Source of the DNA: Microthyrium microscopicum
Lineage: Eukaryota
Reading direction: 5' to 3'
Assembly: GCA_010405405.1 (NCBI GenBank)
Contig: MU004235.1
Location: 572,538-636,537 of the forward strand
DNA: 64,000 nt
Part shown: positions 10,478 through 18,045 of the stretch, piece by piece
Position numbering within the stretch: position 1 is the first letter of the stretch
How the letters are laid out: every line of letters starts with the position of its first letter
Translations under genes and position numbers: made by a program
The notes under the pieces: generated by a model
The model's database searches: none
The model's input: only the letters and a program-made list of their open reading frames with translations
Told to the model about the DNA's origin: nothing

Positions 10478-10813
10478 TTTGGCTGTAGAGAATGTGGAGA
10501 TATGGTGGTTGACTTGTCGCGAAAATTGACTTGGTGATAGTTTTGGGAGGTTGTGTTTGCTTGGGGCTACTACAGCGGAGAAAGGTTGTTGCGGACTCCG
10601 AGATCTCGAATGCCAAGCCCTGGCTGTTTTGAAAGCTACAATTTTCGTAACGCTAGCTCCAAACAGGCAGCTCCTCGATCATAAAAAACGTGATTGTGCA
10701 TTGACCATCCCAGCCTGAGAACTCGCCTCGCATATTCATGCATTAAGATCAAAAAGTTCGTTCACCCACTTCTCCACCATCATCAACTTCTCTACCATCA
10801 CCCCACAACCATC
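10478..10813. promoter_or_regulatory. Compact bidirectional promoter region between RPL34 and PRP8
   Basis: Only 336 bp separate the two divergent ATGs (10477 and 10814). Confidence 0.6.
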
Positions 10814-13800
10814 ATGGCACCGCTACCGCCTCCTCCAGGCTGGGCAGTGCCTCCACGGGGTATTCCTCCTCCACCTCCCCCGGGGTCAGCTCCCCCTCCT
10901 CCTGGCTATCAACCAATCGCCAATCCACAACTTGCAAAGTTCGCGCAAAAGAAGAAAGAATGGCTGCGGATGCAACGACAGCGTTTTGGCGAGAAGCGCA
11001 AGGCCGGCTTCGTCGAGACGCAAAAGTCGGACATGCCTCCTGAACATTTGCGCAAGATTGTACGCGACATTGGAGATGTTTCCCAGAAAAAGTTCAGCAG
11101 CGACAAGCGAAGCTATCTCGGTGCGCTCAAGTTTATGCCACATGCCGTGCTGAAGCTTCTCGAAAATATGCCGATGCCTTGGGAGTCCGCTCGCGAGGTC
11201 AAGGTGCTATATCACGTCAACGGTTGCTTGACAATTGTCAATGAGAGTCCTCGAGTTATCGAACCGATCTTTTTCGCGCAGTGGGCCACAATGTGGACGG
11301 TCATGAGGCGAGAAAAGAGCGATAGGCGATTGTTCAAGCGTATGCGGTTCCCACCGTTCGATGACGAAGAACCACCACTGTCCTGGTCGGAGAATATCGA
11401 GGATGTTGAACCGTTGGAACCCATTCAGATGGATCTCGATGACGAAGAAGATGCAGCCGTCATTGAGTGGTTTTATGATCATCGGCCGTTGTTGGACGAT
11501 TCAGATGAGACGAAGCAGGTTACTCCTGGCTATAGAAAGTGGAACCTCACATTACCTCAAATGGCAACACTACACCGGCTCAGTACTCAACTACTTAGCG
11601 AAGTTGTTGATCAGAACTATTACCACATGTTTGATACCAACAGCTTCTTCACAGCAAAGGCCCTCAATGTCGCCATTCCAGGTGGACCGCGCTTCGAGCC
11701 TTTGTACAAAGATATTGATCCCAATGATGAAGATTTCGGCGAGTTCAATGCTATTGATCGCATCATTTTCCGAGCACCTGTCAAAACCGAATACCGCGTT
11801 GCTTTCCCTCATTTATACAACTCTCTTCCCCGAAGCGTCAAGATGTCTTGGTACTCTCACCCGCCTGTAGTGTATCAGGAAGCGAAAGATCCAAGCCTCC
11901 CCGCCTTCTACTTCGATCCCAATATCAACCCTATCTCTTCCCGATCCGTTGCACCAAAGAATCTTACTCGCAGCCACGAAGATGAAATATTCGAAAATGG
12001 CGAAGACGAATTTGAGATGCCTCCTGAAGTGGAGCCTTATCTCGGAGACGAAGAGCTGTATGATACTGAGACTTCCGCTGCAATCGCCCTCTGGTGGGCA
12101 CCACATCCATTCAATCGACGCTCCGGACATACAGTGCGAGCTCAAGACGTACCACTCGTTAAACACTGGTATCTCGAGCATGTTCCCGAAGGTCAACCAG
12201 TCAAGGTTAGGGTCTCATATCAGAAGCTGCTCAAGAACTATGTTCTGAACGAATTACACAAGCGACCAGCAAAAGCACAGAACAAGCAAAACTTGATAAG
12301 AACCTTGAAGGGAACGAAGTTTTTCCAACAAACTTCCATTGACTGGGTCGAGGCTGGTCTTCAAGTCTGCCGGCAAGGTTTCAACATGTTAAATCTTCTC
12401 ATCCATCGCAAGAACTTGACGTATCTTCACTTGGATTACAACTTCAACTTAAAACCTATCAAGACCTTGACGACAAAAGAGCGCAAGAAGTCACGTTTTG
12501 GAAACGCTTTTCATCTCATGCGTGAAATTCTGAGACTGACAAAGTTGATTGTGGATGCTCAAGTTCAATACCGTCTAGGCAATATTGATGCTTTCCAATT
12601 GGCAGATGGCATTCTTTATGCTTTCAACCACGTTGGTCAACTTACAGGCATGTACCGGTACAAGTACAAGCTCATGCATCAGATTAGATCCTGCAAAGAT
12701 TTGAAGCATTTGATCTATTATCGTTTTAACACCGGCTCGGTCGGCAAAGGTCCCGGATGTGGTTTCTGGGCACCAGCGTGGCGAGTCTGGCTATTCTTCA
12801 TGCGAGGTATCATTCCTCTCCTAGAGCGATGGCTTGGAAACTTGCTGTCTCGTCAGTTCGAAGGTCGTCACAGCAAGGGTGTTGCAAAAACCGTCACCAA
12901 ACAGCGAGTAGAATCTCATTTCGATTTGGAACTGCGAGCATCCGTCATGGCAGATCTCATGGACATGATGCCGGAAGGAATCAAGCAGAACAAGGTCAAC
13001 ACTGTTCTACAACATCTCTCAGAAGCATGGCGATGCTGGAAGAGCAACATCCCGTGGAAGGTGCCCGGTTTGCCTGCTCCAATTGAGAATATTATTTTGA
13101 GATACGTCAAGAGCAAGGCCGATTGGTGGATTTCTGTCGCCCACTACAACCGTGAGCGTATTCGGAGAGGTGCAACTGTTGACAAGACTGTGGCGAAGAA
13201 GAACCTTGGGCGACTTACTCGGCTTTGGTTGAAGGCTGAACAAGAGCGACAGCACAATTACATGAAAGACGGTCCATACGTGTCCTCTGAAGAGGCTGTC
13301 GCAATTTACACAACGACTGTCCATTGGCTCGAGTCGCGGAAGTTCCAACCTATTCCATTCCCAAGTGTTTCGTACAAGCACGACACCAAGATTCTCATTC
13401 TAGCACTCGAGCGTCTACGAGAAGCTTACTCGGTGAAAGGACGACTCAACCAGAGTCAACGTGAGGAACTGGCACTTATTGAACAGGCCTATGATTCTCC
13501 ACAACAGACATTGACCCGCATCAAGCGTTTCTTGCTTACACAACGAGCTTTCAAGGAAGTCGGCATCGATATGAACGACAACTACAGCTCCATCAATCCC
13601 GTCTATGACATTGAGCCCATCGAGAAAATCACCGATGCCTACCTGGATCAGTATCTATGGTATCAAGCAGATCAACGCAATCTTTTCCCAGCTTGGATCA
13701 AACCTTCAGACTCAGAAGTTCCACCACTTCTGGTCTACAAGTGGTGTCAAGGTATCAACAACCTGGACAAGGTATGGGAGTATGAAAATGGTGAATGTGG

Positions 13801-16800
13801 TGTCATGATTGAGACGCAGCTCTCCAAGGTGTACGAAAAGATCGACCTCACCCTTCTCAATCGTCTGCTACGACTAATCATGGACCACAACCTGGCTGAT
13901 TACATTACTTCCAAGAACAATGTGCAGCTCAACTACAAAGACATGAACCATATCAACAGCTATGGTTTGATTCGGGGTCTACAATTCTCAGCCTTTGTTT
14001 TCCAATTCTACGGTTTGGTTATTGATCTACTGCTACTTGGTCTGCAACGAGCTACTGATATTGCTGGTCCACCCTCGCCACAAACTCCAAACGACTTCCT
14101 TCAATTCCGTGATCGGGCAACAGAAACTCGACACCCCATCCGTCTCTATACTCGATACATAGATCGCATCTGGATCTTCTTCAGATTTACGGCGGAAGAG
14201 TCAAGAGACCTCATCCAGCGTTTCCTAACCGAACAACCGGATCCAAATTTCGAGAACGTTATTGGTTACCGCAACAAGAAATGCTGGCCACGAGACTCGC
14301 GAATGCGTCTTATGAGACACGATGTCAATCTGGGGCGTGCAGTCTTCTGGGACTTGAAGAACCGCCTGCCACGATCCGTGACCACGATCGATTGGGATGA
14401 TACCTACGCTAGTGTGTACAGTCGAGACAATCCCAACCTGCTATTCTCCATGAGCGGTTTCGAAGTCCGCATCCTGCCCAAAAATCGTAATCAGAATGAA
14501 GAGTTCACGACCAAAGACAGCGTATGGTCTCTTGTTGACAACGCTACCAAAGAGCGTACGGCACACGCCTTTTTGCAAGTGACTGAGGAGCACATTCAAC
14601 AGTTTAACAACCGCATTCGCCAAATCCTCATGTCTTCAGGCTCTACTACGTTCACGAAGATTGCGAATAAGTGGAATACAACCTTGATTGCACTCTTCAC
14701 ATATTACCGTGAAGCTGCTGTTTCTACAGTCAACCTTCTCGACACAATCGTCAAATGCGAGACCAAGATTCAAACTCGTGTCAAGATCGGTCTCAATTCA
14801 AAGATGCCTTCTCGTTTCCCTCCCGCCGTCTTCTATACTCCCAAGGAACTGGGTGGCCTCGGTATGATTTCCGGATCGCACATTCTCATTCCTGCTAGTG
14901 ACAAGAGATGGTCCAAGCAAACGGATACCGGTGTTACCCATTATCGTGCTGGCATGACACACGACGAAGAAACACTGATCCCCAACATTTTCCGATACAT
15001 TATTCCCTGGGAGTCGGAATTCATTGACTCTCAACGTGTCTGGACAGAATATTCCCAGAAGCGTCTCGAAGCTCAACAGCAGAATCGTCGTCTTACTTTG
15101 GAGGATCTGGAAGATAGCTGGGACCGTGGTCTACCTCGTATCAATACCCTGTTCCAGAAGGATCGTAGCACTTTAAGCTTTGACAAAGGTTTCCGTACGC
15201 GAACGGAATTTAAAACATATCAACTCATGAAGAGCAATCCTTTCTGGTGGACCAGCCAGCGTCATGACGGTAAACTTTGGAACTTGAACGCCTACCGTAC
15301 GGATGTTATTCAGGCATTGGGCGGTGTGGAGACCATCCTTGAACATACGCTCTTCAAGGCCACCGCATTCCCATCTTGGGAAGGTCTCTTCTGGGAGAAG
15401 GTAAGCAAAATCCCTTTCAGTGCCATCCTAAACCCTTGGCGGCATCTGAGGTCTTGCTGGGCTGCCATCGAATGGTATCTCAGCAGGATGATCTACAGCT
15501 CGCATTGTGTTAAAACAATGCTTTTATATTACATCACGCTAACATGTTCCAGGCATCCGGTTTCGAAGAATCCATGAAGTTCAAGAAGTTGACGAACGCA
15601 CAACGATCTGGTTTGAACCAGATCCCCAATCGTCGCTTTACTCTGTGGTGGTCACCAACAATCAATCGTGCTAACGTTTACGTTGGCTTTCAGGTCCAGC
15701 TCGATCTTACTGGTATCTTCCTTCACGGCAAGATCCCGACCCTCAAGATATCTCTCATCCAAATCTTCCGTGCCCATTTGTGGCAGAAGATTCACGAATC
15801 GGTTGTCATGGATTTGTGCCAAGTTTTTGATCAGGAACTCGAGGCGCTTGGAATTGAGACTGTGCAGAAAGAGACGATTCATCCTCGAAAATCATACAAG
15901 ATGAACAGCTCTTGCGCAGACATTCTTCTTTTCGCAAGCCACAAGTGGAGCGTAACTCCTCCATCACTATTGTATGACACTAAGGACCAAATGTCTTCCA
16001 CTAGCACCAACAAATTCTGGATAGATGTACAACTGCGGTATGGCGATTACGACTCTCACGACATCGAGCGATATGTCAGAGCCAAGTATCTTGACTACAC
16101 AACTGATTCGATGAGTATCTATCCCTCTGCCACAGGTCTAATGATTGGTATCGATCTTGCATACAACCTCTACTCGGCTTACGGACAATACTTCCCAGGT
16201 CTCAAGCAGCTTGTCCAACAAGCCATGGCCAAGATCATGAAGGCTAATCCTGCGCTATACGTTCTTCGTGAGCGCATACGGAAGGGTCTTCAGCTTTATG
16301 CATCAGAGAGCAACCAAGAGTTCTTAAACTCTCAAAACTACTCTGAGTTGTTCAGTAACCAGATCCAGCTGTTCATTGATGATACCAACGTCTATCGTGT
16401 CACTATCCACAAGACATTCGAAGGTAATTTGACAACCAAGCCAATCAACGGTGCCATTTTCATCTTCAACCCTCGAACTGGCCAACTGTTCCTCAAGATC
16501 ATTCATACAAGTGTCTGGGCAGGTCAGAAGCGTCTTGGGCAGCTCGCCAAATGGAAAACGGCAGAAGAAGTGGCAGCTCTTATCCGGTCATTGCCTGTAG
16601 AAGAACAACCCAAGCAACTCATTGTCACTCGAAAGGGTCTTCTTGATCCTCTAGAAGTCCATTTGCTTGACTTCCCCAACATCTCGATTCGAGCCTCTGA
16701 GCTTCAGTTGCCATTCCAGGCTGCTATGAAGGTCGAGAAACTCGCAGACATGATTTTGAAAGCCACCGAGCCTCAGATGGTGCTGTACAATCTTTATGAC

Positions 16801-18045
16801 GAGTGGCTTAAGACCATCTCATCATACACAGCCTTCTCTCGACTTGTGCTCATTCTCAGAGCTCTTCATGTCAACATTGACAAGACCAAGTTGATCTTGC
16901 GCCCAGATAGAACAGTCATTACTCAAGCTCATCACATCTGGCCTACACTGTCAGATGAAGATTGGATGAAGGTCGAGAAATCTCTGCAAGATCTAATCCT
17001 TAATGACTATGCTCGCAAGAACAACGTCAATACTTCAAGTTTGACGAACAGCGAAATCCGAGATATCATTCTTGGTATGGAAATTAGCGCACCTTCTCTC
17101 CAGCGTCAACAGGCTGCCGAAATTGATGCGCAGCAACAAGAACAGGCACAATTGACTGCTGTGACCACCAAGACTACCAACGCGGCTGGAGAAGAGCTGA
17201 TCGTCACAACTACGTCTCAGTACGAGCAACAATCATTTGCCTCGAAAACCGAATGGCGAACTCGAGCGATCGCTACTTCCAATCTTCGAACTCGTGCCAA
17301 CAATATCTATATCTCCTCAGATGATATCAAGGAGGACGGCAATTTTACCTATGTCATGCCCAAGAATGTGCTTAAACGATTCATCATGATTGCGGATCTC
17401 CGTATTCAAGTTGCAGGCTATCTCTACGGATGCTCCCCTCCGGATAACTCTCAAGTCAAAGAGGTCCGCACCATTGTCATGGTTCCTCAAGTTGGTAATA
17501 CTCGAGACGTGCAGCTTCCTCGTGAATTGCCTCAGCACGAATACCTCAGCAATCTTGAGCCACTCGGCATCATTCACACTGTCTCCGGCACCGAGCCATC
17601 GTATATGACATCTCAAGATGTTACTCAGCAAGCGCGCCTCCGTGAACATCATCCCTCATGGAAGAACACAGTAACAATGACTGTCTCCTTCATGCCAGGC
17701 TCTGTCTCTCTATCCGCATGGTCAATCACACCTGGCGGCTACAAGTGGGGTGCTGACAACAAGGACCTTGGCAGTGATCAACCCGCCGGATTCAGCACGT
17801 CCTTCGGAGACAAGTGCCAGCTACTGCTGAGCGACAAAATCCGGGGCTACTTCCTCGTACCTGAGCATAATTCCTGGAATTACAGCTTCATGGGAAGCAC
17901 CTTTGGCAGTGTTGAGAAGCGGCCTGTTTATGTCAAGATTGATACTCCTCTTCGGTTCTACGATGATCAGCATCGGCCGCTGCATTTCCAGAACTTTGCA
18001 GAGCTCGAGGATGTTTGGGTGGATCGGGACAATCATTTCGATTAG
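10814..18045 (+). CDS. PRP8: Pre-mRNA splicing factor Prp8 (U5 snRNP), about 2359 aa, intein-free; exons 10814-15400, 15553-18045
   Basis: Pro-rich N-terminus, [50 protein letters not shown], RNaseH-like and Jab1/MPN regions. The two long ORFs are joined by a GTAAGC..GCTAAC..CAG intron. Confidence 0.98.
15401..15552 (+). other. Structured 152-nt spliceosomal intron of PRP8
   Basis: Donor GTAAGC, branch GCTAAC (15538-15543), acceptor CAG. Hairpins at 15451-15489 and 15502-15521. Confidence 0.9.

Follow-up and report, generated by a model that had tools for sequence, protein, structure and literature searches.

Can an intron shield an essential gene from a selfish endonuclease, or does it lie at the endonuclease target by coincidence? 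This question is raised by the splicing-factor gene PRP8 in a 64,000-nt stretch of Microthyrium microscopicum DNA (contig MU004235.1, positions 572,538 to 636,537 of the forward strand; hereafter the window). The gene, located on the + strand (10814..15400 + 15553..18045), contains no intein. Its coding sequence holds exactly one intron, which ends 3 nt before the point at which fungal PRP8 inteins insert (site a). In this study, comparison with other PRP8 genes revealed that introns of Pezizomycotina crowd around the same point at many different positions. Judged from these sequence comparisons, an endonuclease-linked origin or persistence of the window intron comes close to an even chance without reaching it.

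The PRP8 gene and its single intron

The two exons run from the ATG at 10814 to the stop codon at 18043-18045 and encode 2359 aa. The spliced product is identical at 2359/2359 residues to a database protein (P0005) that is named pre-mRNA processing splicing factor 8 (Microthyrium microscopicum) by NCBI. A Pfam search of the protein recovered the full PRP8 domain set, with all domains far above the cut-offs (PRO8NT, PROCN, RRM_4, U5_2-snRNA_bdg, U6-snRNA_bdg, PRP8_domainIV and PROCT), and no Hint or endonuclease domain; WEKA and SGFEE are contiguous.

Exon 1 closes with TGG GAG AAG at 15400, and exon 2 opens with GCA TCC GGT TTC GAA GAA at 15553. The intron between them starts with GTAAGC (15401-15406) and ends with CAG (15550-15552); it contains the motif CTAAC (15539-15543), whose branch A precedes the end of the intron by 10 nt. 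CTAAC is the fungal branch-point consensus. Two long reading frames, 10694-15577 and 15514-18045, overlap at the intron, and the unspliced frame of exon 1 runs on to a stop that ends the ORF at 15577. We are almost certain that the feature is real: a spliceosomal intron of canonical U2 type, carried by a PRP8 gene that lacks an intein. As read from the DNA, its removal brings ...WEK and ASGFEE... together, and the invariant U6-snRNA-binding segment is regained.

The preliminary description of this locus had claimed a sole PRP8 coding intron in phase 0 at the K/A junction; base-by-base reading and the identity to P0005 agree with it. Its placement of site a at 15555/15556, 3 nt from the intron, proved exact on direct reading. 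The chance that one intron in 7080 nt falls 3 nt or less from a given point is p ~0.001.

Inteins and endonucleases at site a

The claim that fungal PRP8 inteins insert at WEKA/SGFEE was confirmed in the databases. Of 345 database proteins pooled from three protein searches, 136 have an insert of the form C[LF]..…HN with WEKA directly before it and SGFEE directly after it; such an insert is present in 17 of the best 120 matches, from 3301, of one of these searches. In metagenome DNA, inserts of 171-827 codons were found at site a in 9 of 80 loci. Seven distinct intein loci match Hom_end_hint in Pfam, and four long inserts among these also match Hom_end. Both LAGLIDADG motifs are intact in P0010 and P0012, whose inteins are among those of the relatives closest to the window.

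The site-a endonuclease of B. cinerea showed 100% homing in crosses (PMC3158057). When assayed in yeast, its activity was ~1800-fold on the native target and ~50-fold on the human genomic target (PMC3159444). According to the legend of figure 5b in the same article, the assayed target reaches upstream to about the Trp codon of FWEK; the legend also implies a human intron inside that Trp codon. The site of the related VMA1 endonuclease is quoted as 31 bp (PMC5056185). In the window, everything upstream of -3 from the insertion point is replaced by intron sequence and the peptide is unaltered, in line with the earlier statement that the intron splits the homing-site DNA without changing the protein. 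The intron lies 3 nt from the insertion point, and the assayed B. cinerea target extends upstream to about the Trp codon; the intron may lie inside the recognition sequence.

Intron positions around site a

Offsets (in nt) take the end of the Lys codon of WEK as zero, so that site a is at +3 and the core from -8 to +13 corresponds to -11 to +10 of the insertion point. The metagenome DNA sample comprised the best 80 of at least 549 loci (L numbers) matching the first 200 residues of exon 2, a selection that disfavours downstream introns. Forty-three of these loci are Pezizomycotina-like (L001-L042 and L044) and cover ~aa 528-2359. Exon ends were placed by tblastn, followed by a search for GT..AG introns that restore the peptide. 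Proteins (P numbers) were drawn from the best 120 of 3301, 120 of 3323, 120 of 549 and 150 of 2651 matches; the set of 120 from 3323 disfavours ORFs that end just after an intein. Proteins from Logan, ENA and IMG were taken to be prokaryote-style gene calls, in which exon 1 reads through into the intron; the tail after the last conserved residue then gives the donor position, read here in the sets drawn from 3301, 549 and 2651 matches. Such tail-derived offsets are reading-frame inferences, not DNA observations, and the least secure is -8 (P0286), whose tail partly resembles downstream exon sequence.

Among the 43 Pezizomycotina-like loci, 16 carry an intron near site a, at seven positions (0, 7, 8, 15, 17, 18 and 20). 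When the ORF tails are added, Pezizomycotina PRP8 genes, which are otherwise nearly devoid of introns, have at least 14 intron positions from -8 to +21 (~30 nt), seven of them seen in DNA and seven inferred from ORF tails only (-8, -5, 5, 6, 13, 16 and 21). With -7 and +1 of other eukaryotes, the latter seen in the DNA of three non-fungal loci, the number of positions near site a rises to 16. No position from +22 to +91 was found in Pezizomycotina among the loci and ORF tails examined. The introns at the K|A position in L005, L006 and L007/L008 are GT..AG introns of 57-68 nt.

Other introns in the 43 loci are limited to ~aa 1472 (L035 and L036), ~-108 nt (L016) and ~aa 2330 (five loci). The last of these served as a control: it lies at an identical codon boundary, after ..DTP[LM], in 5/5 loci carrying it. 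Positional scatter is thus not the norm in PRP8. Six of eight independent positions fall inside a 19-nt window of 5.5 kb, for which the chance is ~5e-14 if the site is taken as given; the assumption of independence is the weak point of this figure. The features of the window and the intron positions are collected in Table 1.

Table 1. PRP8 features in the window (positions 10814 to 18045, numbered from the first letter of the window) and intron or intein positions at site a in other PRP8 genes (offsets in nt, with the end of the Lys codon of WEK as zero).
Feature	Position	Strand	Carriers	Evidence or remarks
PRP8 exon 1	10814..15400	+	window	ATG to ...SWEGLFWEK, 1529 codons; Pfam: PRO8NT, PROCN, RRM_4, U5_2-snRNA_bdg, start of U6-snRNA_bdg
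End of exon 1 (10 nt, C TGG GAG AAG)	15391..15400	+	window	inferred upstream half of the homing site in the uninterrupted allele; now 152 nt from the remainder
PRP8 intron	15401..15552	+	window	152 nt, phase 0, between Lys1529 and Ala1530
Two hairpins in the intron	15451-15488 and 15502-15521	+	window	account for the ~90 nt extra relative to shorter introns at the same position
PRP8 exon 2	15553..18045	+	window	830 codons + stop; Pfam: remainder of U6-snRNA_bdg, PRP8_domainIV, PROCT
Ala-Ser codons GCA TCC	15553..15558	+	window	empty intein site a at 15555|15556, 3 nt into exon 2
Intron	-8		P0286	ORF tail, tentative
Intron	-5		P0289	ORF tail
Intron	0 (same as window)		L005, L006, L007/L008	DNA
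Intron	0		P0249 (cluster of 340 members), P0398	ORF tail
Intron	+5		P0285 (named Pyrenophora teres)	ORF tail
Intron	+6		P0268	ORF tail
Intron	+7		L003, L004, L017	DNA
Intron	+7		four proteins	ORF tail
Intron	+8		L031	DNA
Intron	+13		P0027	ORF tail
Intron	+15		L034, L042/L044	DNA
Intron	+16		four proteins	ORF tail
Intron	+17		L039/L040	DNA
Intron	+17		five proteins	ORF tail
Intron	+18		L037, L038	DNA
Intron	+18		P0257	ORF tail
Intron	+20		L041	DNA; 60-nt in-frame intron
Intron	+20		P0270	ORF tail
Intron	+21		P0248	ORF tail
Intein at site a			9 loci	DNA
Neither intron near site a nor intein			18 loci	DNA

A second hot spot of intron positions is located at +92, +98, +101, +104, +105 and +108, in the TLWWSPT codons (window equivalent 15644-15660). 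The window has no intron there, and introns of this hot spot frequently occur alongside site-a inteins. There is no known Pezizomycotina intein site at +92 to +108.

Several observations were made on other intein sites of PRP8. Two non-fungal PRP8 proteins (P0351 and P0353) carry an intein at SPTINR/[C...HN]/SNVY, at offset +117 and 39 residues after site a (window equivalent ~15669|15670). This SPTINR/SN site, found only in non-fungal proteins, is, among the intein sites found, the nearest to the second hot spot and lies 9-25 nt downstream of it. Further inteins occupy two other PRP8 sites in P0439 and P0444, and this protein region is densely used by inteins. Site b of PRP8 is located at VMDL/CQVF (PMC10710043), and introns in P0024 (tail +249), P0278 (+282) and P0297 (~+264) flank or coincide with it. 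Introns beside intein sites may occur at more than one PRP8 site. Finally, a 16-nt gap with overlapping query residues at L010:2485-2502 (~aa 1847 of PRP8) looks like a frameshift or assembly error and not an intron.

Introns and inteins in the same gene

In a small and biased sample of top matches, made up of the nine intein loci and the intein-bearing ORF-type proteins examined, no gene combined an intein with an intron between -8 and +13. In the nine intein loci, neither the K|A junction nor the 200 codons downstream hold an intron, and the intein-bearing ORF-type proteins examined run contiguously from exon 1 through Ala into the intein. After apparent duplicates were collapsed, an intron near site a (cluster A) was present in 0/7 intein loci and 13/28 intein-free loci (Fisher p = 0.031, uncorrected for phylogeny). 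Farther downstream, two intein-bearing ORFs from outside the Pezizomycotina break at ~+30.

The Ser codon that follows site a was also compared. It is of the AGY type in 6/7 intein loci, 6/14 intron alleles and 1/18 loci with neither element; the difference from the last group gives p = 0.00026 for intein loci and p = 0.027 for cluster-A intron alleles, the group with neither element not being collapsed for duplicates. Since TCN and AGY codons are two mutations apart, an AGY codon may have been left by co-conversion at a site that once held an intein. The window codon (15556-15558) is TCC, the type typical of never-occupied alleles, and thus nothing suggests a former intein in the window allele.

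Distribution and structure of the K|A intron

Trees were built with FastTree on query-anchored alignments; support values were not assessed, and the taxa of the large ORF clusters, such as P0249, rest on placement in these trees only. The K|A intron of the window recurs in at least four further lineages. The offset 0 intron is shared by the window, a Capnodiales-like group, a Pleosporales-like locus and a Leotiomycete-like ORF. The +7 intron occurs in Pleosporales-like, Leotiomycete-like and Sordariomycete-like sequences, and the +17 intron in four groups. Close relatives differ from each other: L031, L034 and L041 have introns at +8, +15 and +20, respectively, and L007 (offset 0) stands beside L018 (intein), L003/L004 (+7) and L001 (none). 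The sampled sequences nearest to the window are P0007, P0008 and P0010, which have inteins and an intron at +92 or +98, and P0027 (+13); the K|A intron is absent from these four relatives.

All four Dothideomycete K|A introns start with GTAAGCA. The intron-free locus L009 is nested between L005 and L006 (both offset 0; 90% and 88% nt identity), these being three related species from one metagenome series. This nesting indicates an intron loss in L009, apparently a precise one.

At 152 nt, the window intron is two to three times as long as introns at the same position elsewhere (57-68 nt). It is strongly folded, with a minimum free energy of -47.2 kcal/mol versus -33.7 for shuffled sequences (z = -3.62; 0/200 shuffles as stable), and includes an inverted repeat at 15502-15521. 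No second copy of it turned up elsewhere in the 64-kb window or among the 80 loci, and a blastx search revealed no intein similarity (E > 1). The intron may have acquired a small structured insert of palindromic or introner-like type.

Discussion

The intron positions around site a may be explained by the behaviour of the intein. The site-a intein would spread via a LAGLIDADG endonuclease whose target, ~20-30 bp across the empty site, has to be uninterrupted. With the peptide unable to change, there would be few means of abolishing this DNA target, and insertion of an intron would be one of them; alleles whose target core contains an intron would escape conversion and survive intein sweeps, and some introns may arise during repair of the endonuclease breaks. 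The window intron removes the target bases upstream of -3, and the allele should be refractory; we infer both the failure of the endonuclease on this allele and that this failure is the reason why the intron exists or persists.

The hot spot is read as a homing barrier because it is centred on the insertion point, has a width close to that of the 31-bp VMA1 site, and is followed by a gap after +21. The link with the endonuclease is favoured by the stability of the control intron, the absence of co-occurrence in the core and the enrichment of AGY in intron alleles, as well as by the presence of endonuclease-bearing inteins in the window's own clade. For the window allele, the immunity proposed in the preliminary description is plausible, and it is a published idea rather than a new one. 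A broader scenario is put forward only tentatively: across Pezizomycotina, repeated intein sweeps might have selected for independent gains of introns, dozens in number and spread over 14 or more positions, in the ~30-bp homing site of a gene otherwise poor in introns, and double-strand breaks might have seeded these gains. Introns within -11 to +10 of the insertion point would give immunity and those farther out none, and the window intron would be one such resistance allele.

Several observations weigh against a homing barrier. Inteins and introns do occur together in some genes: P0406 combines an intein with an intron at +17 (its ORF ends ...HN SGFEE), P0410 combines an intein having both LAGLIDADG motifs with an intron at +16 (...HN SGFE followed by read-through), six intein ORFs also have an intron at +92 to +101, and L016 has an intein and an intron at ~-108. 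Such pairs genuinely exist at distances of 13 nt or more downstream of the insertion point. Mutual exclusivity, for which the preliminary description suggested a test, was seen in this sample at -8 to +13 but not at +16/+17, +92 to +101 and ~-108. The lack of co-occurrence at -11 to +10 of the insertion point is what a ~20-bp core recognition site would predict, but the sample is small and each list was a biased set of top matches. The p value of 0.031 for exclusivity is weak and ignores shared ancestry, and it becomes 0.07 if L041 is counted as intron-free. Half of the 14 positions come from ORF tails and not from DNA. The second hot spot and the scattered positions at -170, -155, -108, -72 and -53 extend the turnover of introns beyond the homing site. 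Animals, which have no inteins, have introns at ~-7 (legend in PMC3159444; P0302) and +75 (bird partial proteins). Moreover, the common GTAAGCA start and the loss in L009 suggest that some Dothideomycetes have probably had the K|A intron for a long time. A 'C-terminal intron' by site a has also been reported in the intein-bearing PRP8 genes of Aspergillus nidulans, A. fumigatus, Botrytis cinerea and Cryptococcus (Butler 2006, PMC1508164).

Much of this would be expected if the intron were an ordinary neutral one whose closeness to site a is incidental, in a WEKASGFEE region that is prone to introns through sliding of an ancient intron, repeated gain at protosplice-like sequences (AAG|G, GAG|G) or preferential mid-gene retention in a long gene whose other introns have disappeared. 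We regard this as a substantial possibility, albeit one that falls clearly below an even chance. It agrees with the introns at -7, +1, +69, +75 and +180 in non-fungal eukaryotes, with the turnover outside the homing site, with the inteins that coexist with introns at +16/+17, and with the apparent age of the K|A intron. It does not readily account for a cluster of 14 positions that spans 30 nt with the insertion point at its centre, followed by none in the next 70 nt and one in the remaining ~2.4 kb downstream, or for a control intron that does not wander. Introns 1-7 nt apart are impossible in one ancestor and imply many independent events at one spot. In addition, core introns and inteins were not observed together, and AGY, the codon typical of intein alleles, is enriched in intron alleles.

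The remaining explanations are less probable. The window intron, or the ~90 nt by which it exceeds its counterparts, might be a copy of a multi-copy structured element (introner-like or small and palindromic) that landed recently and by chance. Introner-like elements, of the kind described in Dothideomycetes, are long and structured, and the length and folding of the window intron are of this character; the absence of a second copy in the window and the 80 loci speaks against such an origin, and the GTAAGCA... context common to the short introns at the same position suggests an old intron with a later insert. An origin of this kind is unlikely. The preliminary description had offered another option, a scar of intein loss, in which the intron is the remnant of a former site-a intein or was made at its deletion. 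Precise loss of the intein, with a footprint left behind, is reported for S. sclerotiorum (PMC3158057), and 6/14 intron alleles have the intein-type AGY codon. This option received no support in the window: the intron lies upstream of the Ala codon, whereas inteins insert on its downstream side, so that GCA could not stand 3' of a decayed intein; an offset of exactly +3 is absent among the 16 positions; the intron does not resemble inteins; and the Ser codon is TCC instead of AGY. Decay of an intein into the intron was rejected for the window allele on the grounds of the wrong side of the Ala codon and the lack of similarity, and a scar in any form is very improbable. That the locus has no intron at all and reflects an annotation or assembly artefact is scarcely credible, given that the splice signals are canonical, the read-through frame stops at 15577, splicing restores the invariant peptide and the independent database model exactly, and homologous introns are present at the same position in four other loci (L005, L006 and L007/L008).

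The origin of new spliceosomal introns and their possible selection is an old open question, and homing endonucleases are natural gene drives. If site-a introns are resistance alleles, an intron would have a clear selective benefit at birth. Intron gain would then be a recurrent, selectable defence against a selfish nuclease wherever the protein sequence is fixed, and the hot spot would record intron births as a dated series. It would also follow that escape from a nuclease drive is still open to a target that is essential and invariant, which would be relevant to synthetic drives aimed at conserved sites. If the link with inteins is spurious, the hot spot would still represent an unusual turnover of intron positions that needs another explanation.

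Comparison with known systems

Acquisition of an intron that prevents intein homing by disrupting the endonuclease recognition site was proposed for prp8 of Eupenicillium (Elleuche 2009, J Basic Microbiol 49:52, as cited in PMC10710043). The gene, the intein site and the subphylum are the same as those of the window. In this study, the Penicillium-like loci L031, L034 and L041 (introns at 8, 15 and 20), together with Penicillium mini-intein proteins, fit the Eupenicillium description as it is given there. The order differs, the window being from a Dothideomycete; the upstream K|A position and the census of many positions come from the present analysis.

Similar relations have been described in more distant eukaryotes. 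At site d of Bathycoccus PRP8, intein and intron are mutually exclusive at one codon, and intein-primed intron gain was proposed (Monier 2013, PMC3749507). As in the window, a spliceosomal intron of PRP8 lies at or adjoining an intein codon, and the two elements are never together in Bathycoccus. Bathycoccus, however, is a green alga with phase 1 introns at site d that are polymorphic in populations, whereas the window intron is in phase 0, lies 3 nt upstream of its intein site and seems to be fixed or old. In Anaeramoeba, introns are located at or near intein sites in intein-free paralogs, and the idea of protection was echoed (Gallot-Lavallee 2023, PMC10710043). This case differs from the window in concerning a metamonad, DNA polymerases/MCM/Msh, and paralogs rather than orthologs. 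The 'C-terminal intron' of Butler 2006 lies downstream of the intein, unlike the window intron; it is recorded as present or absent, without exact positions, and is not read as a barrier (PMC1508164). The sequences compared here suggest that introns co-occurring with inteins sit at +16/+17, ~+30 or ~+100.

In sum, the immunity idea is already published for PRP8 and site a, and the window is a further example. The present study adds a clean upstream case and evidence that the phenomenon may span a whole subphylum with a sharply bounded hot spot. No published census of intron positions around site a was found in the literature searched, which did not cover subscription papers, and the density and sharp bounds of the Pezizomycotina hot spot may be the new part. 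In the immunity of occupied homing sites and in resistance to synthetic gene drives, an allele whose nuclease target is split by an insertion can no longer be cut; where the coding sequence is constrained, resistance to a drive must preserve the protein. Compared with such target-site immunity, the protecting insert in the window would be an unrelated spliceosomal intron, not the mobile element itself or a point mutation.

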